Translations under genes and position numbers: made by a program
Part shown: piece by piece, positions 3,592-57,405 of the stretch
Layout: every line of letters begins with the position of its first letter
Numbering within the stretch: the stretch's first letter is position 1
From: Dudresnaya verticillata
Lineage: Eukaryota
Assembly: GCA_977862235.1 (NCBI GenBank)
Contig: OZ374563.1
Coordinates: forward strand, 1,674,001-1,738,000
Length of the DNA stretch: 64,000 bases
Direction of reading: 5' to 3'
Notes under the pieces: generated by a model
What the model saw: only the letters and a program-made list of their open reading frames with translations
What the model was told of the DNA's origin: nothing
Database searches by the model: none

Positions 3592-6500
3592 CTATCTACA
3601 AAGTGGGTCACAACATGCTTCCGACAATTCTTCTAGGTGAACCACTACGTTGTCGTACAGGTGCTTCGGAAGGATCGTCACGTGGTCCTTTTTGGAATTC
3701 ATGAACTGCAACATGTCTTGAGTCAAATCCCCGATAACATCGATCCTCGGGTTGAGCCGCACGGACACCTGAGCAACTCTTCCATCCCACACTTCGGGTC
3801 TGTCCGGTGCAGGAGACACCTTAAACACCTCGGTCGGTTCATGAGCTGGCCGAATTCCTTTGATGGTCAGTTCCGATAGCATCATAAAGTCTCGGAACAA
3901 GTAGAAGCCGGGTCCTAGCTTCAATTCCAGATCACCCAGCAGTTCTACCGTGAGTTCCTTATCCGTATCAACCACTTTGAGCTTGAGTTTCGGGCTCGGT
4001 ACTCTGAATAAATCACTGTGGATTGCTCTTTCATCATCGTTATAGCTCATCCTTAGATTTTCGAAGTCAATGCCGAGTTCCTTGATATGCACAGCATTCC
4101 GTGAAAGAATACAACTATACTGGTAGTTCACGTCATATCTTGTAACCGATACCATTGCGCTGTGCTGTGTCTCCTCAAACTGATACCCTCGTAACACGGC
4201 GCTCAGACCGTCACCTCGTATGCTCACCTTCGTCCGTTTTCCACTTCGCTTCAGCTTCTGCGCGGGATCCGCAACGTCACTATGAGAGCTCGACGAATTG
4301 TCCCCAACAGTAGTGACATGCAAATGATTCATATCATCACGGCTCTTAGATGCATCTTCCTTGGCAACGAGCGAGTCCCCAGAACGACCGTCGAACGAAT
4401 ACAGTCGCGGTTGGGTTTTTCGTTTCGCACCTTTCGATACCTCTTTCTCGATGAGGAGCTTGACCTCGCCCATTAACTTCTTCGCCTGTCCCGTAAGTCT
4501 AAGAATAGACTTCATCATGGTATGCGAAAATTCACTTTTGACGATTGTGCTCTCAACCACTATGGTTCGGCTAGGCACTGACACGACAGCTGCCAATGCA
4601 TCTATTCCAAGTTTCATTGTGTGGTTGTCATGCTGCCTACTCTCGAACTGAAGGCGGTTCATGATATTCGTCACCACGATGGAGCCCCCATGCTCAGTTC
4701 GGACACCTGACATGGCACAGTTGAACAGATTCTCCCTCAGCCGAAGCTTGCAACTAACAATGTCCCACTGCCCTCGGAGATTCAGGTCATGTAAGGAAAC
4801 ATGGACACTCGAAGGAATAGCGTGAGCGTAAGGATCTCTCCGCACATGACCAATTCCAAGATGCAAGCGCTCGGCAAAAATGTCGACTTGATTGGATGGA
4901 GACTCTTTCTTGGACGGCAGTTTGAGTTGCAAACGGATGTTCGGCTCGATAAATGAATCTTGCGTAGGCTGGTTGTCAACCCCCTCCTCTTTGACTACAA
5001 GTTTTGGACGCCCAAAAGCTATCATGACGTTTCTCTCTGATGCGGCCTTTGGTAGCGCAGAATGGGACTTCGGTTCCACTGCAGAACCCGGACAAGGTCC
5101 CGATTTCTTTCTTGCTGCTTGAATACGGCCTTGGGTCAGTAGTAGTGTCTTCGCGTCCATTAGTGCTGTAACTCTCGTAATATTCAAAAGCGTGTGTGGA
5201 GGGCGAACTGGACTAATCCCGTGCAGGACCCGTGCGTCGATGAGCCGCAAGCTTTGCTCTCTTGCGCCTTCGATCAAAGGAGTGATTTCCAAAGCTAGTT
5301 TCGGAGAGACACCTGTGACTACCGTCGTATGCCCTATTTCGTCTCCGAAGAGCGGCGCTGTGGTAACGGAAACAAGAATAGATGACGTTCGACCCGCAAA
5401 GAACGAAAACTTTGACTCCACAGAAGTATTACCCTCCTCCTGGGCTTTGTACAGAGATTTTCCAAAGCGGATTAGCACAGACGTGTCGCGGGAAATCTCT
5501 CTCGGCTCATTGGCAGGGTTGATCATAATGTCTTGAATCGCGTCTTCCTGGTCGGATGCAACGGCTCCAAATAGGTCTGTGAATACGTTGGCGACCCTCT
5601 GCAGGCACTGTCTTGGGAATTCGCCTTCACGACCGGAGAAGTCTACATCAATTAAATCAAACGTCTCACGTTCGTCACGAACCACAGCAACACTGAAAGC
5701 TGGAACCGCCAACTTCGATGTTTCAGAAGATCTAGGTCTGCCGAGAGAATTTGACGGGCTGGCCACAATGTTTCTTGCCGGTTCGTCGCCCTCCAACCCT
5801 TCTATGAAGCCACTGGTTCGAAGAATCTTCAAGCGCAAGCTTTCAAACAATAGTCGGCCGTGCCTTTCTGTGGTGTTTGAGAAGGAATCTCCAGTGATGC
5901 TTCCGGCCTTTGATAGCACGTCAGGGAGAGACCCCAAAATGTCGCGCGATTTCTCTGCGGCCTTCTTATTCTCCCGTCCATTCTTGGCCTCAAGAATGGC
6001 CATCACAACATCTTTCCGAGGACAGATTCTCCATGTGCCTGCCAGCATAATAAGCTGCACCGAGCCGAAATGTGCATTGCTGAGAATAGAAGGGGGTTCT
6101 ATGCCCAAAGTTATTCGAGAATTATGAGAACTCAGCATCGCCGTATTCTCCCACAGGATACCGATGAAATCGCTCTTCACCTCAAAAATGTTTCTTCGGG
6201 GACGCTCATTTTCACTATCAAACCTCTGTCTCACCAAGAAATGTAGCTGAGTGACTCGCAGTGCAAGTCTTGACGAAGAATACTCCTCAGTATTGAGAAG
6301 GGGAACTGCCAACTTAAAGAGCTGTACTTTCGCACCAACAAGAATAACTCTGTGCTCGAGAGGTTTCGTCTGATCTGCCATCTTTGGTGACTTTGGTGTG
6401 CGAGGTCTCGACGACGCGAGTGCAGCAGTATTAATAGCCTGAAGGTCGGATACGAACTCCTGCTCGTCAGCCCATACAGCGGCATCAAGCAACATTCTCC

Positions 6501-9500
6501 ACGGACGCAGCTGTCCAGATACTCCGTACACATCGACTCGAAATATGAACGTGTGTGTCAATTCTTCCTGCGTCTTCAGAACGTCAAGCCGGGAACGTTC
6601 CAGGGCGATTGACATACTGGCGCGACGTTCGATATTTCGAATGCCGGCCGTAGTGAAGTCTGAGTTTAGCATTCTCAGGAACATCAATGATATTCTTGGA
6701 ACACTTACTGCAGCGCGCAACTGCACTCCGGAACGAACCAACTTGTTCCACTCAAAAATTCCTGTTATTGCTTCCATGTCAAACCGAGCAACCACTTGTC
6801 CGCTTGCCAAACTTACTGACATTGGACGAATAGAAACATCCATTCTGACACCCTTCGTGCGTTCCCAAGCAGCGAAAGACCTTGTGAATGGAGTGGCACC
6901 AGCACTTTGGGACTGGATCTGGCCTTCTGAGTAGACCTCCTTTATATCGGCGCTTTTTTGTCTCGGAGTGACCGGAAGAAAAGCATCGTTGACATCCATC
7001 GTTGGGGTGGTTGCCGTGTTTTGAAATGCCATCAACCCAGCAACCGTGAATATGACGTGACGAAGACCTTGGACTGATGTGGAATTGATAAGAGGCTCAG
7101 CATTAACTTTGAGAAGAGTCGGTAGACCGGTTGTTTCACCCCACTGTACCCCACGTGCGTCAAAGCTTGGGAAGTGAAATGTTTCCTCTTCCGACCATGA
7201 AGGAGAAGACAAAGAGAGTCCATGCCCGTACAGTCGCAATCCAAGGGTCAGCGCAGCACTGTCGTCCTCTGATGCGACGACCGAAAAGAAGAGCCCATCT
7301 AGAAGATACGAAAGACTCATCGCACTATCTTTTGGATGGAAGCCTTCTAGTCTTATTCTCGAATCTTCGCACAAGAGGTCAAATGCCATTGTAGAGTACA
7401 GCGTGCGCCCGGCATACAGAATTCTGGCGGCTGACAGCCTAGTCGCCCTTGCCATCTCAGAAATGGAGGACTTTGTCGTCAAAAACGCAGATACGACGGC
7501 CTTCAGATCAGATTTAAACTCTTCTCTGAAGTTCAAGACCGACTTCAAGTCTGTTGCATGCAGCGTTGTCTTGAATTCCGAAATCCTCGCAGATGCGATC
7601 AATTTTGGTAGAGTTGTCGGTACAAAGCCCTCTACAACACTCATTGTAGCTCCAACACTGCCAATTGATCCTTTAAGTACACAGTTCGGATTATTGCCCG
7701 ACTTCAGGCGAGATGAAGATGCTGTAACAACCATGGAATGACTTCCCTTTGATGGTTCTGACATGAACGTCACACGCGGTTCTCCAAGGAAAAGGCTGAT
7801 ATCAGCTTCCTTCTCGTAGCTCGCCGATATTGAATCCGGCAATGATTTTCGCCGGTAGTAACGACTGACAATCTCCCGAAATGATACAAAAAGTGTTAGG
7901 GCCGGTCGTTTCTTAGGACGCAACAGCTTCGGTCGAACAGGTGTTCCCTGGTCTGAACTTCGAGGGACTCTTTGTGAGAATGGTTCGTTGGAAGTATTGC
8001 TCTGGACATTCGTAGCGCTTCTGCGTTGCAGTGGGGCTGAAGCCTCTCTTCTGTGTGTTGGCGAAACGGGATTATACTGAGAGCCTGCCGAAAGCATTTC
8101 CGCAGTCCGCGATTTCTCTGAGCGTGAGAGCAAGTCCACATCCGAAAAAGCCGGAGGGGCTTGAGTTGAAACAAGTACTCGGGCTTTGGACCGCTTTCGG
8201 GGAGGGCCGGTCTCTCCGGCAGTCGGGACTGCTACGTAGGCAAAGTATTGATTGTCTTCTTCGAACACATCGCCTCTATTGTACCTGCCCTTTGATCCCA
8301 ATACCGACTGTCCAGCATCAACGGATTTTGGGCGTTCTGTTCGCTTGTCCCGAATAATACCAGCAAATGAGACGTGTGCGTTACCATTGCGTTTTGGAAA
8401 CGTGTTTCCTTCTTCACTGTCGTCGCCTGCCGAGCTACGCACAAGGGGATCTGATTTTGGACTCTTCGCAGCATGGAATGTATCACTAGCGTTCCCAGTC
8501 ATGGCTTCAGCACCTCGATGCGACGTCCGCTGCGAACTGGCCCCGAGTTGTCTCACAGAAAATGAATCCTGACCCCCCGATGCGGTTCGCGCTCTCGATT
8601 TAGAACGGCTGTACCAGTGCCCTCGACTCTTCCTCGATGACTGGTGGCTTCTCAAAGGAAAATGGATTCTTCTCTTGTGTTCATGGGCTAAGGAAGCCTG
8701 CTCAAGAGAGGTTCTTATGCTGGCCTTAAGGAATTCTTCGTTCATGTAGCTATACGAAAATAGCTCCGATGATTCCTTTTCTCCAGACGCACGCTGCGCA
8801 TCGTAGCGAAGCATGGGCATTGAAATAGTAGCTTGGCGGATGAACGATGCGACCTCAGATACCATGCGCAGAGTATTTGCAGCAATGTCATCTCTGATTG
8901 ACAGCGAAATGACTCCGAACGTAGCATTGAAAACGTGTCCTTCCAAAGCAGATTCAGTTTGAGCTCGTGCTGTCGAGCCCCCTTTGCAAGCCATGATGTC
9001 AGCCCTTATGATATCCTCCCCAGCCAGTCGGAGAGAGGTCTTTCTCACCGTGACATCCAAGGAAAAGATGATTCCGTACTTCACATTCCCGCTCGATCCC
9101 GTGGCCTCCTCCACTACAAACTGTGGCATGTCACGAAGAATCGCAACACCTTTTCCCTTCCCCGCAATTTCACTTTCTCTATCTAGAATCTGCTGGCTTG
9201 TCTCAGACAAGAATGTCCGCACGTATCCAGCTTCCATCGACGTGAGTTCGGCCATCGACAGGGGCAGCATCCCATGCACCAGATCTTCTATTTGGCCGTT
9301 TTTCATAGCTGCCAAAGACGCGTTTTCAAGCGAAAGTGCTCTGAGCATGAGTGTAAAAATCGAGGCAATCCGACCAACACATGCGTACTGCTGTAAACTG
9401 CTGTTCGGCCCTCCTAAACTAAGCGACGCGACCTTGGCAACTATCGCTTGCTTATCTTCTCTGACAGTTTCTCGTGCAACCTCTTCTGACTCAGAAGTCT

Positions 9501-12500
9501 CGCCAATTTTGGATTGCTCCCGAAGGATGACGACTATCCCTGAAATCTCCAACAACCCGTCATTGTTGCAACCGACCATTACCTTGGGGACCGAAGAATG
9601 AATTACTCTTGTGTGATCGACTCTGGAGACGAGGCCTTGCTGTTCGATTCCTTCATTTCCTGTGCTGGCATCCGAAACCTCCGTTTTCGATGCATCAAGA
9701 ATGTTGAACCCAAATGGCACCGTTAAGAAAAATTCCTCATCCTGTTCTGCCCCACTTGAGAAGAGCGGGTCACCGCTATGGACTTCACCCGGGAGCAAAG
9801 GCGATAGAAACACAACTGTGAATGCCTTTGCCTCAAACCCACGGAGCAAAACGCCTGACCGTGCATCCTCTACAACAGACCATGCAGGTGGCCTTGTAAC
9901 TTCGTATAGGTGCCAGAGGTCTGTGATATCAGTAAGAGAAACTTCAGGGGCTGCTTGATTGGAGTCTCGCTTGCTCTGCGAGAATATAGCTGACTCTTGT
10001 CCCCAGATTCCTTCCTTGTATCGAATGGCTATGTCGTTAGCGACCTCCAAAGTTTCTGGTGAGACTATGACCTTTACGTTCGAGACAATGTTGATAGAGA
10101 ACGTTTCCAATTTTCCAAGACGTGAATCATGCTCCCGCACGTGTTTTGTCAAGATCGACGCACGATGAGACTGACGAAGGTAAATCCACCAGTCAAGGTC
10201 GATTTCATCTTCTTCCAATGGTCCTGCATCTTCTGCCTCAAGTCCTGTCTCTAAACACCATACGGGCGTTTCCCCTCGCACCTTTTGGCTCTGTCCGGAC
10301 ACATGATGTCGTTGCAATTCTGCTACCGTCTGAGCCCACATTCGTGGTCGCGATTCGTGAACAATCTCCAGTGTAACATCTCTTACTGCAGCCGCCGTCC
10401 GCATCAATCCTCCACCCTGGAATGACCCATGCAGATTTCCATCTCTGACCAGCATTGCATGAGCAACTTGTGCTCGCAATGTTGCCTCGTCAATCCAAGG
10501 AGCGAGTTTCCCACCCCATGACATCAGCAGAGCCATGGAGACGTCAGGGAGGGTGAGCCTCGAATGTGCTGCAACTGTCTCCGATGAGAGGTTTGACAAG
10601 AAGAAGCGCAAACCCAATGGCGCTCGAAAGTGGGCAACTCCTGTTAAAAAAGTTGGGGCACTGCTTTGTTTTGTAGACCTTCTCCGGGATCTCTCGTGGC
10701 GCAGCATAGAAAGTTTGCTTACTTGGCCGGATCGCTCAGCAGAAGCATTGCTTGAGGCGGACAAGACGAGCAAGTCTACTTTGCCAACAACAACCTCGAT
10801 ATTCTCAACTGAGAGCAGTGCTGCAGCTGCGGCCTGGTCCTCAAAAAGAGGGTCAGGTACACCTGCAATACCTACCCGCGATGCGCACAATACATCACTG
10901 TCGTGAATGCAACCCGTCAAACTACCGATTCCAATAAGGAGTTGGGACTTATACGGTCCCCAATCAGCAGTTGCCAAAGAGCGTTTCCGAACTTGGAACT
11001 GCTCAATTGATATAGTTGGAGCAGTTGAGTCATCAGAGCGGGAACCGCCTTCTGATTCGCCTCTTTGCTCAACCGGTTCACGATAGTCATAGTGGAGTGT
11101 GACACGCTTATCCCTTGACTCAGGCGAACAGACTACATCAAGGCCTAGCCGAGATCCACGAACAGAACAAACAAACCTTCCACTCTCCAGAGAAGACAAA
11201 TTCTTGCTTCGCTTGTTGAAGGGGCTAAGGGCATGGGGTAGGTCATGAAATCTAGCCACGAGAGACTCAGTTTGGAAACCTACGGATATTAGCTCGTCCA
11301 TAGCTTTCCTGTGCTCAATCATCAAGAGTGTTTGGCCCGCAGGGAGCCCTAATACGACGCATTCCTTAAGAAACGGATATCGGCGTTCGTTCAAGACAAC
11401 ATGCGCAACGTCTCTACGCTTCGAGTGTAGTCGATCTCTTTCCACTGCTGTGAGCATATGAGCCCCAGCGCCCGCGTAGTTTCTCGAAAGATTGAGAAAG
11501 TGCGTAATGTGGTGCGGGTTAATGTCCAAAGCTAGTGACGATGCTCTTATATTAATGTCACTGCGGTCCACAGCATCAGGCAGCGATGGGAGAGAGGAAT
11601 TGAGAAAAGTCCGTCCTTCATTCAGAACAACCTTTCCAGATATGCTGAGTACTTTCCCAGCCTGGACAATTTCGGCTACATGTGTCCGTTCTCGCGGCTT
11701 GGCAGACTTGGTGTCAGAATGATGTAGATGACTAGCAAGCGTTTCCAACTGACTACGTACCCTCCTGGCTAACGAAGGTGCTCGACCCTTATGGTGGAGG
11801 GATCTATATGAGTCAGAGGGTCTTCCGGCACCTTCTCCATGCGGTTCAGCGGGGCTTGCTGCCGGTTTGTGCGGAAACGGAAGCTCGATTTTCCCCGTTG
11901 CATTTGGAAGGGAGAGAGTCCATGACACAACAGTGAAGTCCGGTAGAAACTCCGTAGGGACGCTAGGCGTTAGGACCAGCTCGGCGTTTTCTCCACAAAT
12001 CCTCATCTTACCATATTTGTCTGCTTTCAATGTATGTACATCATCCCATGCGTTGTCATGGCTGCAGGAAAAGATCACGCTGTACCCGTTCTCTGCCAAC
12101 ACTCTTGTCGTTTCCTTAAAAGGAACAAAATAACGAACATCTTGCGGCTTCTTCATGCAGCCCTGTATGTCTGCAATCATATCGTCGATCACTCGTTGCA
12201 TATCTGGCAAGTACACAGTTTGGCTATCTCTCAGTATGATATCGACTATGGAAGAGTGTACTCCGTTCCAAACCTGAGGAAGCTGCAAGGCGCGATTCAC
12301 CTCGGCACTGGACGCCTCAACTAGTGGCATATCAAGGACACCTCGTACTACTGCGCTCACAGCTCTTAGAGAGACATTCGTTCTTTGCTCAGCTCCAATA
12401 CGATACGGCACTTCAGTTCGAACTGAGACATGTCTTGCATGTATATCAACCGAACTCGGGGGAAGCCCAAATTCTACAGGTCTTTTGTCAGGCGGTGGAT

Positions 12501-14241
12501 CCTTTCCACTTCGCCTTGGCCATCTTCTTACGTCGAGGGATCTTAATGACGACCAAGACATTTCCCGTGGCTTAAACGGAATGGATATCAATGGGGCGTC
12601 TGCAGCGGTGTCGCTCTTCCGAGACGACAATGGCACAACAGGTGTCGCATCTACCTCTATCTGTATTCCAGTTGCAGAGCGCTTCCCGTCCTGTGATTGT
12701 GCCTTCATAGCAAGGGGCATGAGGTCATAAAACGCCGGTTGCAAGCGCTCCATGACTCGTTCGATATCGGCAATGGCCTTGGTGTCATACGAGAAAGACG
12801 CACCACGAAGCAATACTGACACCCGACAGACTGGTGGCGGATATGAACTCGTGTCCTCCGCATATGTCTCCGAAGATATGTCAGCAGGACCAGAACGGGT
12901 TCGACCCACAGCATCCTGACCTGCAACGTCTCGACCTGCAGCAGGGCCGGGCTCATCAAAAACATAGTCGACGACGGCAGTCTCAGAGGACAGGATATTC
13001 GCGCAGGGGAGTGGCTGTGACCTCCGCGCCTCCCACGCAGTAGCTCTGTTCTGATAGCGAAAGCTAGGACGGCGCTCGTTCAATGACGAGCGTGTAGGGG
13101 ACTTCGCGTCACTCCCAGAGGTAAACTTGCGAGGCCTCTTCGAGCTTAAGGAGCGTTGGCTAGTCCTGTTTCGTTCTCGGAATGGATCACTGATGCCCTT
13201 ATGGCCCAGAGCCATGACACGTCTAATCATCCGGTCTGTGTTGTCCTGCAGCACGTCCGGAGCCAAAGGAGGGGTTGGTCCCAGCACCGGTTCAGCAAGT
13301 TTGCGCACGGTCTCGCGGTCTGCGACGGAAACACGAAGGCCAGAGAGGCGTACGCGGAAGCGCTTGCGACATTCGTCAATAGGGCATGCGGCTGCACCGT
13401 ACCGATACCGAATCTTGGCCGAGTCGACGACGATGCGGATGAGCGGGCTTTCCCCCATGTCGCAAAAGTAGAACGAGCCACTAGTAATACGCAATGACAC
13501 GAGCTCAGCAATGCGCTGGCGCAGCGGTTTAGCATCCGTGGACTGTTCGGATTCGTACGATGAGGCGGAAGAGTCATGGCGATTAGGCGCAGTGGAGGTC
13601 TGCGTGAGCTCGGCAAGCTCGTTCACTGGGACGTCAAGGCGGCCGTTGCGCGCGGTCTTGGCGAGGGCGAGCACGCGGTTAACATGTTCGTAGTTGGCCT
13701 GCATGTTGACCAGGCGCGCGCGTAGGCCAACTGCAATGAGCGAGATGAGCGGCGGAGGTTCGGAAGCGTTTGCATCGGTCGGGCCGGCCGAGCGACGCCA
13801 CCAGCGGCGAAGACGGTAAAACAGGCGCTTCGGGAGGAAAGCAGAGTTTTGGCGCGCGAGCTCCTGCTCGGCGTGCGCGACCGGGTCGAGTGTGTGGGCG
13901 TCATCCACGGCGAGCAGCTGGCGGAACTGGCTCTCCGGGGCCTTGCGCCACCAGCGGATCTGTAACACGAGCTCCTCAGCTGTGATGGTGCCATCTGGGA
14001 CGGTGTAACGGAGTGAGTGGGCAACGGCGCGGCCGGCTAAGGGGTAGATGTGGAGGGTGGGGACGACAACGTGGAAGGCGCCGCGAGAAGCGCGGTTGGC
14101 GAGGAAGGCAAGGCCGCGGCCGAGCAGGCGGGGGAGGAGGAGGACGACTAGTACGACCCAGCAAACCGAGGCAAGCGCGAGGAGCGAGAAGGTGAGCAAG
14201 GATGGGTCATCTGCAACCTGTTGTCGCGTGGGGGCCTCCAT
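3592..14241 (-). CDS. Csf1/KIAA1109 (BLTP1/Tweek)-like bridge-like lipid transfer protein, intronless
   Basis: Uninterrupted 3549-aa ORF. An N-terminal TM anchor is followed by HIYPLAGR..HSLRYTVPDGTITAEELVLQIRWWRK, resembling the Csf1 N-terminal SLLGGRIFFK..RY....I.I..G.ITWRYW pattern. The body is long and rich in predicted beta-strand, and the C-terminus reads LNPRIDVIGDLT. Family call by eye. Confidence 0.75.
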   Translation of the reverse strand: MEAPTRQQVADDPSLLTFSLLALASVCWVVLVVLLLPRLLGRGLAFLANRASRGAFHVVVPTLHIYPLAGRAVAHSLRYTVPDGTITAEELVLQIRWWRKAPESQFRQLLAVDDAHTLDPVAHAEQELARQNSAFLPKRLFYRLRRWWRRSAGPTDANASEPPPLISLIAVGLRARLVNMQANYEHVNRVLALAKTARNGRLDVPVNELAELTQTSTAPNRHDSSASSYESEQSTDAKPLRQRIAELVSLRITSGSFYFCDMGESPLIRIVVDSAKIRYRYGAAACPIDECRKRFRVRLSGLRVSVADRETVRKLAEPVLGPTPPLAPDVLQDNTDRMIRRVMALGHKGISDPFRERNRTSQRSLSSKRPRKFTSGSDAKSPTRSSLNERRPSFRYQNRATAWEARRSQPLPCANILSSETAVVDYVFDEPGPAAGRDVAGQDAVGRTRSGPADISSETYAEDTSSYPPPVCRVSVLLRGASFSYDTKAIADIERVMERLQPAFYDLMPLAMKAQSQDGKRSATGIQIEVDATPVVPLSSRKSDTAADAPLISIPFKPREMSWSSLRSLDVRRWPRRSGKDPPPDKRPVEFGLPPSSVDIHARHVSVRTEVPYRIGAEQRTNVSLRAVSAVVRGVLDMPLVEASSAEVNRALQLPQVWNGVHSSIVDIILRDSQTVYLPDMQRVIDDMIADIQGCMKKPQDVRYFVPFKETTRVLAENGYSVIFSCSHDNAWDDVHTLKADKYGKMRICGENAELVLTPSVPTEFLPDFTVVSWTLSLPNATGKIELPFPHKPAASPAEPHGEGAGRPSDSYRSLHHKGRAPSLARRVRSQLETLASHLHHSDTKSAKPRERTHVAEIVQAGKVLSISGKVVLNEGRTFLNSSLPSLPDAVDRSDINIRASSLALDINPHHITHFLNLSRNYAGAGAHMLTAVERDRLHSKRRDVAHVVLNERRYPFLKECVVLGLPAGQTLLMIEHRKAMDELISVGFQTESLVARFHDLPHALSPFNKRSKNLSSLESGRFVCSVRGSRLGLDVVCSPESRDKRVTLHYDYREPVEQRGESEGGSRSDDSTAPTISIEQFQVRKRSLATADWGPYKSQLLIGIGSLTGCIHDSDVLCASRVGIAGVPDPLFEDQAAAAALLSVENIEVVVGKVDLLVLSASSNASAERSGQVSKLSMLRHERSRRRSTKQSSAPTFLTGVAHFRAPLGLRFFLSNLSSETVAAHSRLTLPDVSMALLMSWGGKLAPWIDEATLRAQVAHAMLVRDGNLHGSFQGGGLMRTAAAVRDVTLEIVHESRPRMWAQTVAELQRHHVSGQSQKVRGETPVWCLETGLEAEDAGPLEEDEIDLDWWIYLRQSHRASILTKHVREHDSRLGKLETFSINIVSNVKVIVSPETLEVANDIAIRYKEGIWGQESAIFSQSKRDSNQAAPEVSLTDITDLWHLYEVTRPPAWSVVEDARSGVLLRGFEAKAFTVVFLSPLLPGEVHSGDPLFSSGAEQDEEFFLTVPFGFNILDASKTEVSDASTGNEGIEQQGLVSRVDHTRVIHSSVPKVMVGCNNDGLLEISGIVVILREQSKIGETSESEEVARETVREDKQAIVAKVASLSLGGPNSSLQQYACVGRIASIFTLMLRALSLENASLAAMKNGQIEDLVHGMLPLSMAELTSMEAGYVRTFLSETSQQILDRESEIAGKGKGVAILRDMPQFVVEEATGSSGNVKYGIIFSLDVTVRKTSLRLAGEDIIRADIMACKGGSTARAQTESALEGHVFNATFGVISLSIRDDIAANTLRMVSEVASFIRQATISMPMLRYDAQRASGEKESSELFSYSYMNEEFLKASIRTSLEQASLAHEHKRRIHFPLRSHQSSRKSRGHWYSRSKSRARTASGGQDSFSVRQLGASSQRTSHRGAEAMTGNASDTFHAAKSPKSDPLVRSSAGDDSEEGNTFPKRNGNAHVSFAGIIRDKRTERPKSVDAGQSVLGSKGRYNRGDVFEEDNQYFAYVAVPTAGETGPPRKRSKARVLVSTQAPPAFSDVDLLSRSEKSRTAEMLSAGSQYNPVSPTHRREASAPLQRRSATNVQSNTSNEPFSQRVPRSSDQGTPVRPKLLRPKKRPALTLFVSFREIVSRYYRRKSLPDSISASYEKEADISLFLGEPRVTFMSEPSKGSHSMVVTASSSRLKSGNNPNCVLKGSIGSVGATMSVVEGFVPTTLPKLIASARISEFKTTLHATDLKSVLNFREEFKSDLKAVVSAFLTTKSSISEMARATRLSAARILYAGRTLYSTMAFDLLCEDSRIRLEGFHPKDSAMSLSYLLDGLFFSVVASEDDSAALTLGLRLYGHGLSLSSPSWSEEETFHFPSFDARGVQWGETTGLPTLLKVNAEPLINSTSVQGLRHVIFTVAGLMAFQNTATTPTMDVNDAFLPVTPRQKSADIKEVYSEGQIQSQSAGATPFTRSFAAWERTKGVRMDVSIRPMSVSLASGQVVARFDMEAITGIFEWNKLVRSGVQLRAAVSVPRISLMFLRMLNSDFTTAGIRNIERRASMSIALERSRLDVLKTQEELTHTFIFRVDVYGVSGQLRPWRMLLDAAVWADEQEFVSDLQAINTAALASSRPRTPKSPKMADQTKPLEHRVILVGAKVQLFKLAVPLLNTEEYSSSRLALRVTQLHFLVRQRFDSENERPRRNIFEVKSDFIGILWENTAMLSSHNSRITLGIEPPSILSNAHFGSVQLIMLAGTWRICPRKDVVMAILEAKNGRENKKAAEKSRDILGSLPDVLSKAGSITGDSFSNTTERHGRLLFESLRLKILRTSGFIEGLEGDEPARNIVASPSNSLGRPRSSETSKLAVPAFSVAVVRDERETFDLIDVDFSGREGEFPRQCLQRVANVFTDLFGAVASDQEDAIQDIMINPANEPREISRDTSVLIRFGKSLYKAQEEGNTSVESKFSFFAGRTSSILVSVTTAPLFGDEIGHTTVVTGVSPKLALEITPLIEGAREQSLRLIDARVLHGISPVRPPHTLLNITRVTALMDAKTLLLTQGRIQAARKKSGPCPGSAVEPKSHSALPKAASERNVMIAFGRPKLVVKEEGVDNQPTQDSFIEPNIRLQLKLPSKKESPSNQVDIFAERLHLGIGHVRRDPYAHAIPSSVHVSLHDLNLRGQWDIVSCKLRLRENLFNCAMSGVRTEHGGSIVVTNIMNRLQFESRQHDNHTMKLGIDALAAVVSVPSRTIVVESTIVKSEFSHTMMKSILRLTGQAKKLMGEVKLLIEKEVSKGAKRKTQPRLYSFDGRSGDSLVAKEDASKSRDDMNHLHVTTVGDNSSSSHSDVADPAQKLKRSGKRTKVSIRGDGLSAVLRGYQFEETQHSAMVSVTRYDVNYQYSCILSRNAVHIKELGIDFENLRMSYNDDERAIHSDLFRVPSPKLKLKVVDTDKELTVELLGDLELKLGPGFYLFRDFMMLSELTIKGIRPAHEPTEVFKVSPAPDRPEVWDGRVAQVSVRLNPRIDVIGDLTQDMLQFMNSKKDHVTILPKHLYDNVVVHLEELSEACCDPLCR

Positions 14242-15585
14242 GGTGGGACGTGAGGAGGCGAGAGAGAGAGACGGGGAGGTGAGCTTGGGAAGAAAGGGGG
14301 ATGGGACGTGCGGGGCGGAAGCTGGGGGTAAGCAGGGGGGTCGGTGTTGAAGGTAACGGGGATGGGCAGATGCTCTACTGTATCGAGATGGGCGCTTGGC
14401 ACTATTTTCAGCTTTTCGGTTGGGAGAGGGTCCGCCATGAGCCTACCGTTCAGGCCAGAATATTCAGCTCGACAACACGTTGCATACGTGTCTCAATGTG
14501 TCCCGTATTTGAGCTCGCTGATCGGGCCAATGCGCCGTGAATTGCTTGGCTAACTGTCCGTTCCGAAGGGAGCTTTTGACTGTACATGCAACGCCAGACA
14601 CTATTTGAATGGATTCCAGACCGCGAAACTTAGTACATGTGCCGGACTACTCTCCCTTTGTATAATGCCCGTGACATTGGTTGGCCCTCAAAGCACCTTG
14701 CCGCACACACCTGTTGGTACTCGGTGCCAGCTCTAGCGCCACCCACGCATAGATTGTTGTATAGGTGTATACGCAACAGTTCAAGGAAAGCCAAGAAGCG
14801 AAGTAGGGAGAAAGTCAAGTTAGTCCTCAAGGCATACATCTAAACAATTCAACATGCAATTGGCAATACAGAAAACTGTGGATATCTTTATTTGTTTTCT
14901 TCGCGCTGCTCCCGCCGAAAGTCCATTCTCCCAAATCATAATAATTGTCGCTGCCAAGATATCCCAGTCTATAGGACCCATAGACTGGAAATAAAAGGGC
15001 AATCTCCGAAAGCCTCCGGAGAAGTTTGCTCTCCAGAGTTCCTTGTACAGCACCACACGGGCCATATCACCAACCGGTCGGGCCCAATGGTTGCTCCGTC
15101 CTGAAACGACTCTTATTTGCACCGTTGGCGTTGGCAGCTCCCCACCTCCTCGTCTTCTGCGAAGCACTTTGGACAAGTGGTTTGTATACCTTGTAGTGTA
15201 TATACAGATTACAGGTGTTGTACTATGAGTATGCTGGAGTTTTACAACTTGTACATTACAAAAAGAGGCTTGCGCTTTTTAATACCATGCGTGGCGCATT
15301 TGCTTCCTTCACGGAAGACTTTGTTTCCAGTGAAGATGGTATTGCGATCTTTGTCACACGATCCTACTTCCCCGAAAAACGTTTCTCCGATCGAAATAGA
15401 ATTGGGAAAGCAGCACAGCTCATCCCAGCATTGCGCATCATGAACATGAACAACAGTGTGGCTGAGAAATCAGTTTGTGAATTGCAGTAGTACCCGCTGT
15501 GCAATCTACTGCTGGCGTCCCGCTGGCAACCTTCTTTCTAAGCCTTTCTGGTTTGCTTGCACCCAACACAGTGTACACAACACAG

Positions 15586-15630
15586 TACAACACAACACAG
15601 TACAACACAACACAGTACAACACAACACAG
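15586..15630 (+). repeat. Minisatellite, 3 x TACAACACAACACAG (plus degenerate partial copy upstream)
   Basis: Three exact 15-nt units at 15586, 15601 and 15616, immediately beyond the tRNA terminator. Confidence 0.9.
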
Positions 15631-15631
15631 C

Positions 15632-15638
15632 AAAAAAA
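15632..15638 (-). terminator. RNA polymerase III terminator (T7) of the permuted tRNA
   Basis: TTTTTTT on the minus strand about 20 nt after the end of the tRNA 5' half. Confidence 0.8.
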
Positions 15639-15657
15639 TAGAAGCGTAGTGGGTGCT

Positions 15658-15748
15658 TAGCGCCTTAGACCACTCGGCCACGCTGCCCTATCCCGTGACA
15701 GCGGTGAGATTCGAACTCACGCATACAAAGTATACTACGACCTGAACG
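15658..15748 (-). tRNA. trnL-CAG: Circularly permuted tRNA-Leu(CAG): 3' half 15748-15696, 8-nt spacer 15695-15688, 5' half 15687-15658
   Basis: Minus strand reads CGTTCAGGTCGTAGTATACTTTGTATGCGTGAGTTCGAATCTCACCGCTGTCA-cgggatag-GGCAGCGTGGCCGAGTGGTCTAAGGCGCTA. Swapping the halves gives a complete 83-nt class II cloverleaf: acceptor GGCAGCG/CGCTGTC plus A73, D arm GCCG-AGTGGTCTA-AGGC, anticodon stem CTACG/CGTAG with loop TT-CAG-GT, variable arm TATAC-TTT-GTATG, T arm GTGAG-TTCGAAT-CTCAC. Confidence 0.93.
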
Positions 15749-15800
15749 TTGCGCGCACCTAACACTGTAAATGCTTCTGATGGTGAACAGAAATTGGTCA

Positions 15801-15809
15801 TTATTTAAA
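15801..15809 (-). promoter_or_regulatory. TATA-like element upstream of the permuted tRNA
   Basis: TTTAAATAA on the minus strand about 52 nt upstream of the tRNA 3' half. Confidence 0.5.
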
Positions 15810-38280: not shown

Positions 38281-38938
38281 CGCGGCGGCGGGTGGGGTCT
38301 GGACGGCGGCGGCGGCTGCAGCAGCCGGGCGGCGGCGGCTGCAGCAGCCGCAGCAGCCGCGGCAGCGGCGCGGCGGTGCGACGGCCTCGACGCGGCCGCG
38401 CGGCGCAGCCGGGGCGCGTGGGGGCCGTTGCGTGCGGTCCGCCGCGCAAGCTGTGACGCGCGGGGGATAATATCTGCCGGGGCCGCGCATCAAACGCATC
38501 GCCGCATGCGCGGCCCGCTGTAATGCCCGTCACGCGGATCAACCCGCCGCCGCCCGTTTCGTCACGTTCCCGCCCCGCTCGCCGGGCCTCGCTTACACAC
38601 CGGGCCGCCCCTACCGCAACTCCGCCCCCCCCCCCCCCCCCCCCATGCACACGCACACGCACACACACACTCAAGTCGGACAGTTGCTCCCGACACCCCC
38701 TATCTTGTCCCCAGCCTTGCCCTACCCCGACACCCCCACCCCCCACTTCCTTCCCATTCCCCCTCCAGCCCCTCTGTGTGCCTCACGCGCGCGCGAGTCC
38801 CCACCATCGCCCCATCCCTGCTGCTGCTGCCGCCGCCGCCGCCGCCGCCGCCGTCGTCGTCTCGGTCTTCGCGGCTTCGTCCGTACCCACGTGCGCACCA
38901 CCAGCCCGCACCGGCCCGCTCGGCCCCGGCGCGCCGCC

Positions 38939-46450: not shown

Positions 46451-47347
46451 TCACAACACCTCGAAATCGAACCTTGACCCTGGTGCGCTCATCCCACCGT
46501 CACCGTCTGCTACCCCGCTGCGCTCCCGCACCACCACACCGCCAATGTACACCCTGACTGTCCAGCCAGTGCGTCCCTCGCGGCAGTTGTCAAACTGGCT
46601 GACGCGCACCTTGTACCGGCCCTTCTCCAGCGGCCCAACCCTCCCAAACACGGCTGCCTCCCGCCCGCCCACGGACGTATCACTACACGCGCCTGCGTTA
46701 CCATCTCCGAGTAGCTCTCCGCTTGCGGTCAGCGGGGCCATGTAGTACACCTCTTCTCCTCCGGGGGCCGTGACATGCAGGTCGAGATCGTCCTTCGAGT
46801 CCCACGTCAGCTCCACACCGACTGCGGGAACATACGCCTCGAAGGCAACGCAATCCCTTCTGACCGGCCCCCCATCGACATGCTTGACATGTCCGCGGTC
46901 GGAATAGCTGTACCTGCTCATCGGCAGCACATAGCACCCGCCGTCAACCGCCTTGAGCTGCGCAGGCGAGGCGGCCTGTCGCGCAATGCTGACGCCACGG
47001 CCAGTTGAAAGGCGCACGGTCTTGAAGAAGGTCGGCGGCAGGGCGTCGCGCGAGATCGGGCTGGGCGAGGTGCCGTCCATGCGCACGGCCTCGCTGCTTT
47101 CGGCGTTGAGCAGGCGGCGGCCGGCGCGGCACAGCGGCGGCGCGTGCGCCACGTCGGCCGCGAACAGCGGCAGCGACGTGGACCCGTCACAGAACGTCAG
47201 GCGGCACGCCGCGGCGCACGGGTCCGGCGCCAGGTTGGGCGACAGCGCGCGCAGCTGCGGCGCGCGCGGCTTGGCGCTGCGCGCGGCGCGCAGCAGCGAC
47301 ATCAGCAGCAGGGCGGACAGCGGGTGCAGAGGGTGCGCGCGCGGCAT
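46451..47347 (-). CDS. Secreted protein with C-terminal YfaP/DUF2135-like domain (paralogue of 16393-17229)
   Basis: 298 aa from MPRAHPLHPLSALLLMSLLRAARS; VGVELTWDSKDDLDLHVTAPGGEEVYY...REAAVF...KGRYKVRV; shares the C...C...FC, PPLCR, EAV, C..LP..RY and RDCVAF pattern with its paralogue. Confidence 0.75.
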   Translation of the reverse strand: MPRAHPLHPLSALLLMSLLRAARSAKPRAPQLRALSPNLAPDPCAAACRLTFCDGSTSLPLFAADVAHAPPLCRAGRRLLNAESSEAVRMDGTSPSPISRDALPPTFFKTVRLSTGRGVSIARQAASPAQLKAVDGGCYVLPMSRYSYSDRGHVKHVDGGPVRRDCVAFEAYVPAVGVELTWDSKDDLDLHVTAPGGEEVYYMAPLTASGELLGDGNAGACSDTSVGGREAAVFGRVGPLEKGRYKVRVSQFDNCREGRTGWTVRVYIGGVVVRERSGVADGDGGMSAPGSRFDFEVL

Positions 47348-48703
47348 GGCGGAGGGCGGGGCGAGGGCGACGGTGATTGCGCGGCGTGGCGATGGCGGGG
47401 GGGCGCGGGGCGCGGGGCGGTGGGGGGGAATGGTGACATAAGTAGGGGGAAACGGCTGGGAGCGGCGATGTGTGATCTCTCGTGGGGTGAGACTGTGACT
47501 CTGAGAGTGGTGGCGGGATGCGGCAGCGGCAGGAGGGATGGCGTGCTGCAGCGATAGATGCGGCTCCAACGTAACCGCAAATTGCGCGGGCAGTCTCGAG
47601 TGATATTGCGGAAAGTTGTGCGGTTCTTATGACTTCGCTAATGTGATGAACGTTACGAAGCGCTGTTGCGGCTCCCGTCGGGTGCGTATGTGATCACAGT
47701 ACGGTAGACGCACTGCTACCTGTACGTCATGTACCTTTGAAGGTATAACACTATTATACTGCACAGGGCAGCTACAGCGGCTTCGCAGTCGCGTCTCCCA
47801 ATATCTACGCGATGACACGCACAGCACTCCCACCTTCCTCCTTGCAACCGCCAGTCTTGCTCCTCGCTACTTGTTGTTTGCGTTATCCAAAGAATAACAA
47901 GAAAAAAGCAAGTGGGACTAGACTACACTAGAATCAAGTGGGCCAAGTGCAAGTTGCCGAGACCGGTTTGCTTGTTGTAGTCCCCCCAGCTGTAGAGTGT
48001 GCATCAGTTCCAACCGAATATCAAACAGACCTTGACCCTTGCAAGGTATAGCAAAAAGTCGGATACGAAAATGTCGCCATTCTCGAAAACGCTCCGCGTG
48101 ATTCGCACTTCCTCCATGTCCATCATTTCGAACACATTATTATGCAAACACTTGTTGTACTATCCAGGCATGTCCCAATGGCAGCAAACAAAGTCGCACT
48201 ATCATTCCATCCCGGCCTCAGTAACACTTTGGCCTTGTGGTACCACCTTATTAACACCATCGAAAAAACTTCAGACGGGAACGAATGTATTGGGCCCATC
48301 ACTAGCAAACTGGCTTTGGGGCCTTTACATATTTGCAGCCCCAGCTCAGCAAGCCTTTCGCACCTCTTCATCATTTCAGCCCACTTCCGTAGAGATTAGA
48401 GTATGTAATTCCCAGAAAACTCGGGGCAAGAATGTGGACTCCATATCGCAGGTTAACGAGACTTCGCCAGAGTCTATCATTTTCATACCTTCTGTAGGGC
48501 ACAGCACTATTTTTCGCCCATTGCTTGCATCGCTTCTGATTTTCAATGAGTTCCGTAGCAAACTTCTTCTTAAGAAGGCAGGAAAAGAAGGGGGGGAAAT
48601 TAAACTCTCCGAAGATGTCGAATCCAACGCGTTCAGGAGCAGATACATAACCTGATTTCAGAGCCATTGTGGGGACCGCGTTACATTACTGGCGACGTCT
48701 GAA

Positions 48704-49822
48704 ATGGTTTTCATCCCAGTCCGTTCTTCCTTGGTTGGTTATTTTATCGAGGGTGTTTCGATATTCACCGAGCTGGCTCTCCTCAAGGGATTACTCAACT
48801 TGCGAGCCTATTTCGAGTGCAAGGAGTTAGAGAAAGGGAAAGGTATTAGAATTAAAGCGCATCTGACTCGCGTCCGCGTCATCCAGATATCTGCTGTGGT
48901 GCTATTTATTGCCGCAGAAGGTTTGGTATCTGCTTTTAATCAACCCGGGAAAGAAAAAATCCCGAGAACAGACCGTTGCATAAAAACGTCCTTTGGAATT
49001 TCTAAGAAGGATGAAACTCCACTGTCAGAAATTGTCTCCTATGGGTGCCTTACTGTTGAGAAAAACATCATTTCTTTCAAGACGGGCAACTTTAGCTTGG
49101 AAAATGGTCAAGCTACTTGCAGCAATGAGACAGCGTTCAGTTTCAAACTCGGCGAAGTAGTGAAAATTTCGAAAAGAGATGCTGGAGATGTTGAAGAAAA
49201 GTGCGGCGATGAATCCTGTTCTCTGGTGGCTTGGAAAGATGGGCGATTGCTGTATTCTGGTGAGTACCCGAAGGATTTGATAAATGACAAACCTATAGAA
49301 TTTTATCCCACAAATGTTACAAAAGATATTAGTAACGACCTTCCTCGCTACGCCGAGAAGGCTCACAAACTGAATGCAGTTCCTGTGACTGACACTGTTG
49401 TTTTTAGAAGGAGGTTGCTGATCGGATGGGAGGAAGGTGAATGTCCGTTCGAGAGCGACAAGCGTGATGGCACAGACCTTCCCTTAGCAATCATCATAAT
49501 CACTGGTGCAATATGGACATTGACTATCGCCTTTTTCTTGGGAACACTGCCGTTGAAGCGCAATATCTTCTTTGACTTAAATGATAGGAAGAAAGTTCTG
49601 ACCAACACAATTATTAATGGAGACATGAGTAGGGGCTCGCCCGACGATGGAATCATCCGTTTGCAGGGCAGCACGTCCGGTACAAGAAGAGTTACCATTA
49701 CTACCGTAAATCAACGTCCAACAAGTCGTTCCAACCGTACTAGTCTGGGTGGCAGTTCGGTTGATACAAAGGACCAAGAGGGAACCGCTTCTCTGCCTGA
49801 CACGATAGACACGATGGCCTAA
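48704..49822 (+). CDS. Multi-pass membrane protein with Cys-containing loop, paralogue A (372 aa)
   Basis: Intact AT-rich ORF with 2-3 hydrophobic helices flanking a loop of about 180 aa with 6 Cys; frame conserved in the diverged paralogue at 55836. Confidence 0.75.
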   Translation: MVFIPVRSSLVGYFIEGVSIFTELALLKGLLNLRAYFECKELEKGKGIRIKAHLTRVRVIQISAVVLFIAAEGLVSAFNQPGKEKIPRTDRCIKTSFGISKKDETPLSEIVSYGCLTVEKNIISFKTGNFSLENGQATCSNETAFSFKLGEVVKISKRDAGDVEEKCGDESCSLVAWKDGRLLYSGEYPKDLINDKPIEFYPTNVTKDISNDLPRYAEKAHKLNAVPVTDTVVFRRRLLIGWEEGECPFESDKRDGTDLPLAIIIITGAIWTLTIAFFLGTLPLKRNIFFDLNDRKKVLTNTIINGDMSRGSPDDGIIRLQGSTSGTRRVTITTVNQRPTSRSNRTSLGGSSVDTKDQEGTASLPDTIDTMA

Positions 49823-51043
49823 GGGTGAGGAACGACCTCCATTTATGTCTCTTCTTCGCTCGAAGTCGTTCCTGGGCATGAAGTCGATTGAAATACAGGG
49901 CGTGTGCTACGCCCTTCTTTCGTCTTGCTTATGGAGCTCCGCAGCTGTCATCCAGCACATTGTGCAACCTATTTATCACGGACTAGTTGTATGACGGATT
50001 TCCACGTTCTGGGAGAGAGCCACGACGTGCTGCTACACCTTGCTATTCCATGGCCTTTTCTACATCAAAATCGGTACACTTCTGGGTGCCGTTCATTGCA
50101 ACCTTTTATTTAATGTAGTCGTTGATATGCTGCAGCTGAGGTCACTTTCCGGATCTCATTTCTTCTGCACTAACCTATAAATACGTGTTCGGCATTCTAT
50201 TCACAGCTTCCAGCAATCACTCCCAGAGGCAATAACAATAAGCGATGATTTCGATAGAATGAATAGGCAGAGCCTTAGAAGAGCATTTGAATCTACGAGG
50301 AAAATCCTCAATAGCACAAATCTTGCGCAGCGCAACTGGTTATCAGCGGCAACTTTCTGCTTAGCTACATGCTGATACCACCTCTCCTTGGAGGGCTCCC
50401 AAGTAGCACAGCGCCTCCTCCGTGGTACCACTGGGGGAGCAGCAGGCACGTGATCGACAATAGAAGCGTGTTTGTTACATGGAGCTGGCGTCAGCCTGCA
50501 TAGAAAACTTACTCTTCTCTTTCCGTGCAGTGACCTCTCATGTGGTCCACTCCGGTAGGACGAGCGTATGAAGCTCTTTCTCAGGAGAACACTAAAGTGC
50601 AGCGCAGGTGGCAAAAAGACTGTTGGCATCTTGTGGGCTGTGTTGTTCATCGTGTCGCGGGCGCAAAAAGGACAGGAGTCCAATCCAAGAGTCTGACCGA
50701 CGTTTGTCCAGGGACGCCACACCTGCGCACGCCCTGCTTTCGCTCTCACCATGAATGTCGCGAGATGCAAAAGTGTGTTCGTATGCTCCCAGGAGGCACG
50801 TGCTGCGCACATTTTATTGGATGCTGCCCGTTTTGCTTTGAGATGGGCCCTCACCAAGCCATTTACGGCAATTTCACCTCCCACATCACAATTCCGTGAT
50901 GTGCGCTGTCCAAGTCGAAGACCAAGTCACACCTTCCACACGAAACGCCGGGGGCACAAGACGGACGCCGTCGGTGAACCCGCTCGTCGCGGGCAACGGC
51001 GCAGCACAGCGCAACCCCAGCCCGACCTCGGCGCCTCTCCGCG

Positions 51044-52111
51044 ATGCAATTCTCTCGGGCAGTATCCGCGCTACCGCGGCGAACCTTTGCGCAGCACCAC
51101 GTGCGCCGGCTACAGGGCACGCCGCCGCGGGGCACGCCGCGGAAGACGATGCGCACGCTGCGCCACAAGTACGAGCGAGGCGGGTCGCTGACCATGCTGA
51201 CTGCGTACGACTACCCCTCCGCGCTGCACGCGGACCGCGCGGGCGTGGACGCCGTGCTGGTCGGCGACTCGCTGGGCATGGTCGTGCTGGGCTCGCGCAC
51301 CACGCAGGCAGTCACGCTGGACGATATGGTACACCACGCGCGCGCTGCGCGTCGCGGAGTGCACGACGCTTTGCTCGTGGCTGACCTACCGTTCGGTACG
51401 TACGAGACGAGCACGTCGCAGGCAGTTTCGTCCGCAGTGCGACTGGTCAAGGAAGCCGGCGTGGACGCCGTTAAGCTGGAGGGCGGCCGCGATCGGCAGC
51501 ACATCCTGTCTGCTGTGGTTGACGCCGGTGTCGCCGTCATGGGCCATGTCGGGTTGCAGCCGCAGGCTGTGAGCAGGCTAGGGGGCTTTCGCGCTGTTGG
51601 TAAGAGCTGTGGAGAAGCCTGGCGCGTACTGGACGACGCTCGTGCTGTGGAGGCTGCAGGCGCATTCGCGTTCGTCATCGAGTGTGTACCGGAGCGCCTC
51701 GCGGGTGTTGTTCGCCGCGCCGTGGACATTCCAACGGTGGGCATTGGTAGTGGTGTGGAATGTGACGGGCAGGTGTTGGTGTATCATGATATGCTTGGGA
51801 TTCTGTCGCACCCGCACCATGCCAAGGTAGCACCCAAGTTTTCCAAGCTGTTTGCCGAGCTTGGCCCCCTTATCGACGAGGCCATTAGAGAGTACTGCCG
51901 TCAGGTCGAACAGGGCGAATTTCCAAGTGAGAGGTATTCGCCATACTCCATTCCGGATAAAGAGTTTGATGACTTTCTGCGACAAGCCGGGGATCTGGAG
52001 GTGCGCAAGCGTGCCATCGAGGCTCGCGAGGAACGCCAGCAGCCACTGAAAGACGCTGGATCTCCTCGCGACGCCAGTCCACAAAGCACACAAGGTATTT
52101 CCGTATACTGA
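51044..52111 (+). CDS. panB: 3-methyl-2-oxobutanoate hydroxymethyltransferase (ketopantoate hydroxymethyltransferase), mitochondrial-type presequence
   Basis: LTMLTAYDY, VLVGDSLGMVVLG, VTLDDMVHH, VADLPFGTY, AVKLEGG, VMGHVGL.PQ, PTVGIGSG..CDGQVLVYHDMLG, PKF. Confidence 0.97.
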   Translation: MQFSRAVSALPRRTFAQHHVRRLQGTPPRGTPRKTMRTLRHKYERGGSLTMLTAYDYPSALHADRAGVDAVLVGDSLGMVVLGSRTTQAVTLDDMVHHARAARRGVHDALLVADLPFGTYETSTSQAVSSAVRLVKEAGVDAVKLEGGRDRQHILSAVVDAGVAVMGHVGLQPQAVSRLGGFRAVGKSCGEAWRVLDDARAVEAAGAFAFVIECVPERLAGVVRRAVDIPTVGIGSGVECDGQVLVYHDMLGILSHPHHAKVAPKFSKLFAELGPLIDEAIREYCRQVEQGEFPSERYSPYSIPDKEFDDFLRQAGDLEVRKRAIEAREERQQPLKDAGSPRDASPQSTQGISVY

Positions 52112-52162
52112 GTAGCTTGGAATCGGCACATGACAGTCGGTGATGAGGTTAAAACATCTGTG

Positions 52163-52940
52163 TTAAGGTCGTTCCCCTACGCCCCCACACATGTCATACA
52201 CAGCCTGTGCTATTTGCAGGGCAATCTCATCTGCCTTGCCACCACTCCCGACAGGCGCCTCGGCGTACACTCGAACAATATCTTCTGTACCACTCGGCCG
52301 TACGAAAGCCCGACAGCCCTCTCCGGTAGAAATCTTCATGACAGCGTCGCGAAGTGCCCGCGGCTCCCTGACGAGACGGTCGCAGTCCTCCGTAGCGATC
52401 ACACTCTTATCAGCAATACGCACCACGAGATTGCTACTGCATCTCTCGTCGTACAGCATAAGGCAATCCGCGAACGACATCCCTTCACTCGCGAGAATGC
52501 CCAGCACGAGCAGCAAGTCGGCCACGCCGTCGCCCACAGCCTGGTTGGCCAGCTCACTCATCGCAAGCAGCAGGGACAGACTGAGTTTTTGCTCCGATTC
52601 GGCCGGCTCACCCCCCAGGCGATCCATCGCCGCGGACAGGGCCGCGACGGCGTTGTCGCCGAACAAAATTGTGCCGTGTCCATTCGGTTCCCAATAAATA
52701 CCTATATCAAACGTCCGCACGGCACGCTCCAGATGCTTGACGCCTGTCTTCGCGATGACGACCTCCACGCCGGCGAGGGCGGACAAAAATTCTGTGGCAG
52801 CGCCGTTTGAGTACGCCGTCTGTGCAACAGCAACGGTGAGTCCAGATACGGCGGCCTGCGTGAGATGTCTGGCCACAAACGACGAGACAAGCGCGGCAAA
52901 GCGGTCGCCGTCGGCCAACACGACATCCTGCCCCTTCGGG
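52163..52940 (-). pseudogene. PGM3: 5'-truncated phosphoacetylglucosamine mutase (PGM3/AGM1), C-terminal half only
   Basis: LADGDR, QTAYSNG, KTGVKHL, FDIGIYWEPNGHGTILF, NQAVGDGVADLL and RAFVRPSGTEDIVRVYAEA are present. The N-terminal TASHN active site and DGDADR metal loop are not found upstream. Confidence 0.8.
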
Positions 52941-53739: not shown

Positions 53740-53746
53740 TATATAA
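53740..53746 (+). promoter_or_regulatory. TATA box upstream of the 281-aa ORF
   Basis: TATATAA about 150 nt before ATG 53892, followed by a pyrimidine-rich leader. Confidence 0.5.
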
Positions 53747-53891
53747 CGATTGAATTCAGACTTCGCTCCCCCGCCTTGCTTTCCTGCGCCTGCTATCCTC
53801 AGCACCTGGTTCTAACTCACGCCCGCCCTTTGCACCATTCCATCTCGAATCTGAGCTGCTCAGCCCTAACATCAATCCTCTTCCAACTACC

Positions 53892-57201: not shown

Positions 57202-57405
57202 TTATTTAATGTAGTCGTTGATATGCTGCAGCGACGTGGACCCGTCGCAGAAGGTCAGGCGGCACGCCGCGGCGCACGGGTCCGGCGCCAGGTTGGGCGA
57301 CAGCGCGCGCAGCTGCGGCGCGCGCGGCTTGGCGCTGCGCGCGGCGCGCAGCAGCGACATCAGCAGCAGGGCGGACAGCGGGTGCAGAGGGTGCGCGCGC
57401 GGCAT
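57202..57405 (-). pseudogene. Truncated, chimeric copy of the secreted DUF2135-like gene at the duplication junction (67 aa)
   Basis: Same start and signal peptide as 47347, broken after TFCDGSTSL and ending QHINDYIK* in unrelated flank. Confidence 0.8.

Follow-up and report, generated by a model that had tools for sequence, protein, structure and literature searches.

A circularly permuted tRNA-Leu(CAG) gene with a predicted 29/30 junction in a genome that groups with florideophyte red algae

Gene order and identity of the locus

The locus described here is an intact tRNA-Leu(CAG) gene in circularly permuted order, 83 nt long once re-ordered. It lies between a 278-aa and a 3,549-aa open reading frame (ORF) of the 64,000-nt stretch of DNA that was analysed (the window), and no ORF of at least 60 aa runs over either half. 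The 3′ half stands upstream of the 5′ half on the same strand and neither is part of a complete tRNA (Table 1). The initial annotation had given this order, 15748-15696 followed by 15687-15658 on the minus strand, and its coordinates are exact.

Table 1. Features of the permuted locus, in window coordinates
Feature	Position	Strand	Remarks
AT-only 10-mer, TATA-like	15800..15809	minus	upstream of the 3′ half by about 50-60 nt
Leader arm of the predicted HBh′ motif	15749..15759	minus	from fold and register test
Outer helix, leader strand	15759-15755	minus	pairs with 15656-15652
Central helix, leader strand	15754-15751	minus	paired to tRNA positions 24-27
Two unpaired leader bases	15750-15749	minus	just before the predicted cut
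tRNA 3′ half, positions 30-73, 53 nt	15696..15748	minus	first in gene order; holds the larger part of the anticodon arm, the variable region (14 nt), the T arm with the B box, the acceptor 3′ strand and A73
Anticodon CAG	15744-15742	minus	inside the 3′ half
Intervening sequence (spacer), 8 nt	15688..15695	minus	loop closing the acceptor stem
tRNA 5′ half, positions 1-29, 30 nt	15658..15687	minus	second in gene order; acceptor 5′ strand, D arm, first three anticodon-stem bases
A box	15680-15672	minus	in the D arm of the 5′ half
Trailer arm of the predicted HBh′ motif	15652..15657	minus	15657 is the third base of the bulge; 15656-15652 form the outer helix strand
Further predicted leader-trailer helix	15643..15647 with 15766-15762	minus	5 pairs, one G.U; folding prediction only
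T7 run, likely Pol III terminator	15632..15638	minus	20 nt past the 5′ half

The exons carry the invariant bases that had been claimed for them (U8, A14, G18G19, U33 and the T loop), together with the R15:Y48 pair (G15-C48) and the discriminator A73, after which no CCA is encoded. The statement that all stems pair holds for the acceptor stem (six Watson-Crick pairs and one G.U), the anticodon stem (5/5), in which A29-U41 joins the two halves, and the T stem (5/5). It does not hold for the D stem, which has three Watson-Crick pairs and a G13.A22 mismatch; G13 and A22 are invariant in all 15 colinear Leu genes of an alignment of retrieved loci. The spacer is predicted to bridge the acceptor stem, with acceptor pair probabilities of 0.94-1.0, and its length falls within the 1-74 nt given for known permuted genes in the consulted parts of Soma 2014 (PMC3978253).

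The Leu(CAG) identity is borne out by ARAGORN, which calls the re-ordered sequence tRNA-Leu(cag), 83 nt, and by the closest tRNAs. Among 165 distinct complete tRNAs from 82 retrieved loci, the best three matches are colinear Leu(CAG) genes with 68, 67 and 66 identities over 83 positions, and the joined anticodon stem is identical to the one seen in two of the natural Leu(CAG) genes with colinear order (L080 and L081). In genomic order both ARAGORN and Rfam at its gathering threshold are silent, so that these two scanners miss the gene, as had been anticipated. The sole ARAGORN call in the window is a tRNA-Val(gac) at 38358-38447 (plus strand), in very GC-rich low-complexity DNA, and is likely a false positive, since a T loop cannot be recognised in it and Rfam does not support it.

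A covariance model was built from 15 of 26 colinear Leu genes, namely those with at least 55 identities. It gives seven matches in the window at E ≤ 1. The tRNA halves reach 39.6 and 23.9 bits, against 10.5 bits at most for any other match (the E-values are rough). A T-arm scan finds no other T arm in the window, both halves are single-copy there, and in 200 codon-block shuffles of the window none of 77 T arms was followed downstream by an acceptor strand together with U8, A14 and GG. Three further candidates were discarded. A colinear D-armless fold taken from the covariance-model alignment, with 15769-15763 as acceptor strand, has a pair probability of 0.0, and such a strand is found in 2,484 of 20,000 random pieces. 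A decayed 5′ half upstream, with an A-box-like motif (15827-15811), is equalled in score by 1,228 of 5,000 random pieces, and a decayed 3′ half downstream by 991 of 5,000.

A T run, likely a Pol III terminator, lies downstream of the tRNA halves; a T6 within 30 nt is seen at 0.7% of random window positions and at 2.2% of local ones. The AT-only 10-mer upstream may possibly act as an external promoter, a weak case given that an AT9 within 70 nt occurs at 3.2% of random window positions and at 16% of local ones, the common background around this element. The box order is reversed, with the B box before the A box, an order described as unsuited to TFIIIC in the consulted parts of Soma 2014 (PMC3978253). 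Among the Leu codons of seven window ORFs, CUG is used most often (156 of 637). It could also be read by a Leu(UAG) tRNA. Directly after the T7 run there is a 15-nt tandem repeat (window 15575-15634).

The junction and its flanks

The flanks of the two halves contain a signal that the initial annotation had not described and that supports its 29/30 split. All 18 junction registers that keep a length of 83 nt (20/21 to 37/38) were tested. A perfect anticodon stem is obtained at 28/29 and 29/30 only, with the same product from both, and 29/30 is the sole register of the 18 where leader and trailer also form a central helix with 4/4 and an outer helix with 5/5 Watson-Crick pairs, separated by a 3-nt bulge. 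Registers 20/21 and 37/38 fail this flank-pairing test. The leader and trailer are thus predicted to form a BHB-type motif, and we assign it to the relaxed HBh′ form rather than the strict hBHBh′ form because the exon-side helix h has just 2/3 pairs; the exon side of the predicted fold opens into a multiloop. The predicted cleavage point, which lies two bases 3′ from the central helix, follows the canonical geometry (Yoshihisa 2014, PMC4090602, in the part consulted).

How often would such flanks arise by chance? Both helices appear in 17 of 2,000,000 draws of random flanks, or in 380 of 2,000,000 when G.U pairs are allowed. Positions 24-27 are self-complementary in this tRNA and the final six leader bases match positions 24-29 at 5/6, therefore the central helix may come from a duplicate and is not independent evidence. 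As it is possibly inherited, the conservative chance figure is that of the outer helix alone, which is matched by 1,129 of 1,000,000 random 5-mer pairs. Both helices are present in the minimum-energy fold, with pair probabilities that depend on the precursor start: 0.99 for a start at 15772, 0.87 at 15780 and 0.65-0.67 at 15800. The folding energy of the precursor is itself unexceptional (z = -1.65; 12 of 200 shuffles are equally stable).

The leader match is just what a duplicate would leave, and it suits a reading of the locus as a silent relic, either the middle of a tandem tRNA-Leu duplication that has shed its outer halves or a disused permuted gene, with colinear Leu(CAG) or Leu(UAG) genes elsewhere doing the work. 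The window also has a recent tandem duplication, if the 6.8-kb repeat described below is taken as one. We nevertheless consider a relic unlikely. Both halves are intact and share one common junction, as the earlier judgement that the gene is not decayed would have it, and a T7 run follows the gene. Beyond those six leader bases the flanks show no likeness to a tRNA (0/10 and 2/10 in register) yet are 5/5 paired to each other.

Host lineage and known permuted genes

The initial annotation had guessed at a multicellular red alga as host, and the neighbouring proteins point the same way. The DDB1 protein encoded 2.7 kb from the locus is 73% identical to that of Chondrus crispus, 66-67% to those of two Gracilaria, 50% to that of Galdieria and 47% to that of Hildenbrandia. 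In a DDB1 tree of 49 database rows (the best 44 matches plus five named ones) it joins Chondrus in a clade of 10 rows (support 99), itself nested in a 27-row clade with Gracilaria (100). In a PanB tree of 53 of the 120 matches, the PanB of the window likewise shares a clade of 10 rows with Chondrus crispus (support 99). Both are FastTree trees with SH-like support and few named taxa, in which Hildenbrandia is misplaced on a long branch; read with this in mind, they place the host with Chondrus, inside the florideophytes. Florideophytes are multicellular.

On the other side of the locus, the intron-less 3,549-aa ORF (window 3592-14241, minus strand) has no Pfam match and 15 matches of similar size, among which Gracilaria domingensis is the sole one with a species name. 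In the ESM Atlas its first 1,500 aa fall near the Csf1/BLTP1 (KIAA1109) family of bridge-like lipid transfer proteins (0.96, with a low recognition score), which is a tentative pointer. The Gracilaria domingensis orthologues of this ORF, DDB1 and PanB are each assigned to a contig 643,102 bp long, and the order of genes near the tRNA locus is likely conserved. The protein pairs P0128/P0268 and P0134/P0270 likewise lie on contigs of equal size within each pair.

These neighbours also bear on whether the locus is an assembly artefact or contaminant sequence, which we regard as extremely improbable. A 6.8-kb direct repeat of 99.96% identity elsewhere in the window (47167-53942 and 57225-64000, 10,058 nt apart) could be an assembly duplication, or equally a recent tandem one. 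Against a misjoin at the tRNA, the large genes on both sides have florideophyte sequences as best named matches, the tRNA halves are single-copy in the window, and a misjoin would not yield mutually complementary flanks in the endonuclease register. The repeat contains PanB and part of a phosphoacetylglucosamine mutase, and a 1.07-kb ORF that belongs to no Pfam family is present in three copies (48660, 55792 and 58718), the middle one at 91%.

The closest counterparts of the locus are the permuted genes (types I-IV) found in Cyanidioschyzon merolae, a red alga. According to the consulted parts of PMC3978253 and PMC3728597, these likewise have the 3′ half first, a BHB-type junction (HBh′ forms included) and no encoded CCA; their T run downstream stands as it does here, and their TATA-like element upstream has a possible counterpart in the AT-only 10-mer (PMC3978253, in part). 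C. merolae even has a permuted Leu(CAG) gene, with the same anticodon and a 9-nt spacer against 8 nt here, but its junction is at 37/38, and those of C. merolae overall are at 20/21, 37/38, 50/51 and 59/60 rather than 29/30 (PMC3978253, in part). The two also differ in that C. merolae belongs to the Cyanidiophyceae, whereas the present locus groups with florideophytes, and in that processing has been demonstrated in C. merolae and is predicted here. Because the junction differs, an independent origin from the C. merolae genes may be inferred.

The same gene order and a BHB-dependent model are described for prasinophytes, chlorarachniophyte nucleomorphs, Auxenochlorella and Thermofilum pendens, where class II tRNAs (Ser and Leu) are often permuted, as Leu is here (consulted parts of PMC3978253, PMC4494063, PMC12633428 and PMC3218864). 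Their hosts are all unicellular and the junctions are at 37/38 in green algae (one at 15/16) and 59/60 in Thermofilum, in contrast to 29/30 here (PMC3978253, in part). Table 1 of PMC3978253, from the part of that paper compared, has the junctions 15/16, 20/21, 37/38, 50/51 and 59/60 only, and 29/30 lies outside all five of these types (I-V), a comparison that covers this table and not the Auxenochlorella junctions of its Fig. S1. Archaea provide the same splice position, with introns at 29/30 and a Caldivirga split tRNA-Ala at 29/30, although these are cis-introns or trans-spliced halves and not a permuted nuclear gene (Yoshihisa 2014, PMC4090602, in part).

A comparison nearer to the host is Chondrus crispus, a close relative in which BHB-like processing outside 37/38 has been confirmed by RT-PCR (PlantRNA 2.0 preprint; PMC13578239, in part). 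Its introns at 20/21 and 58/59 sit in colinear genes, unlike the permuted 29/30 arrangement described here, and none is listed in the anticodon stem (PlantRNA 2.0 preprint). An excerpt of an EMBO J 2026 review (PMC13578239) states that Chondrus crispus lacks permuted tRNA genes. In the openly accessible papers and preprints searched, among them PMC4033280, PMC13353863 and bioRxiv 10.64898/2026.07.10.737489, we found no report of a permuted tRNA gene from a multicellular red alga, only reports from unicellular algae and one archaeon. This agrees with the view first taken of the locus; to the known hosts named at that time, Auxenochlorella and the Amorphochlora nucleomorph are to be added. Relative to these papers, what is new here is the 29/30 junction and the host lineage; the permuted gene architecture is already known.

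Proposed maturation and origin

We think it likely, with a good degree of confidence, that this is a nuclear permuted tRNA-Leu(CAG) gene that is probably functional, transcribed as one Pol III transcript and matured via a circular intermediate that is cut and rejoined at 29/30. The order of the halves, the intact tRNA sequence and the complementary flanks in the HBh′ register are read directly from the locus, and the processing is modelled on Cyanidioschyzon. Pol III would start downstream of the AT-rich element and stop at the T7 run, and the precursor would fold with the spacer loop closing the acceptor stem. The tRNA splicing endonuclease would then cleave each strand at a distance of two bases 3′ from the 4-bp central helix, and tRNA ligase would join A29 to C30 to give a 91-nt circle. 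RNase P and tRNase Z would remove the 8-nt spacer, CCA would be added last, and the mature product would read CUG codons.

Is 29/30 a plausible place for such a cut? Archaea splice or split tRNAs at 29/30, so an endonuclease can use this position as a BHB site, and since Chondrus crispus splices introns in the D and T loops, a relative does process non-canonical sites. Cutting in the anticodon stem by a red-algal enzyme is an extrapolation, because no intron listed for C. merolae (none of 42 is in the anticodon stem) or C. crispus sits there. A permuted gene of this kind in a relative of Chondrus would mean that the splicing endonuclease of red algae may act within the anticodon stem, off its usual ruler position.

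An RNA that is expressed and not matured to a tRNA, such as a closed-acceptor tRNA mimic in the manner of the bacterial Y RNA YrlA, or an RNA left nicked in two pieces, seems to us very unlikely. YrlA is described as resembling a permuted tRNA (bioRxiv 10.1101/312249, in part), and the sole Rfam match of the locus at a relaxed threshold is indeed YrlA (RF02553; 18.5 bits, E 0.39). We attribute this likeness to the permuted order, which itself produces it. The match is far from the RF02553 gathering score of 69, and where YrlA has no anticodon loop (bioRxiv 10.1101/312249, in part) the locus has a complete CAG loop along with a 7-bp acceptor stem and A73, so that it does not qualify as a YrlA or Y RNA on either count.

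Under the preferred reading as a permuted gene that yields a tRNA, the junction position makes it possible to test directly by what route permuted genes come about. Published origin models start from the duplication of an intron-bearing tRNA gene, whereas the tRNA's own palindrome could have supplied the central helix here. Two tandem intron-less Leu copies could pair at positions 24-27, giving a 4-bp helix with symmetric cuts at exactly 29/30; a relaxed red-algal splicing endonuclease could use those sites, and the outer helix would have been gained afterwards by selection. Such an origin would explain both the 29/30 junction and the 5/6 match of the leader, and positions 24-27 are self-complementary in 9 of 15 colinear Leu genes. 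An ancestral intron at 29/30 accounts for the data equally well. A search of the flanks for larger remnants of the outer tRNA halves found none.

Permuted tRNA genes have so far passed for an oddity of very small unicellular algae and a single archaeon, and the seaweed genome with the best curation is said to be without them. A permuted gene in a relative of Chondrus would mean that the tRNA sets of red seaweeds may be under-annotated. The most far-reaching reading would make this gene the first of its permuted kind in any multicellular organism, with 29/30 as a new class of junction. It would belong to a scanner-missed set across florideophyte seaweeds, the hidden class envisaged in the initial annotation, here represented by one gene in one species, and would have arisen without an ancestral intron via the 24-27 palindrome, the outer helix being selected later. 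Taken as a whole, we put this forward tentatively and think it somewhat doubtful.

A search for an orthologue with exact patterns, allowing no mismatch, found no second copy in viral, metagenome or GTDB collections, which hold little or no red-algal nuclear DNA. Given this scarcity and the exact patterns, the blank says little. With no orthologous locus in these collections, there is also no cross-species covariation for the flanks. The pattern loci that were found are mostly ordinary arrays: in 74 of the 77 in viral contigs a full tRNA covers one motif or more (in three it covers none), all five in metagenomes are tandem arrays and all six in GTDB are tandem full tRNAs. Two giant-virus tRNA clusters (L011 and L026, each at about 255-370) have a Leu/Ser-type 5′ half that is preceded, at 3-4 nt, by a T arm with an acceptor 3′ strand. 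Neither half belongs to a complete tRNA, and a common pair of complementary motifs flanks them. These look like permuted tRNA layouts with a common insert, in which a clean BHB register was looked for and not found. Three of the metagenome contigs (L078, L080 and L081) carry densely packed arrays in which about 20 different tRNA genes of eukaryote type are set apart by short spacers.
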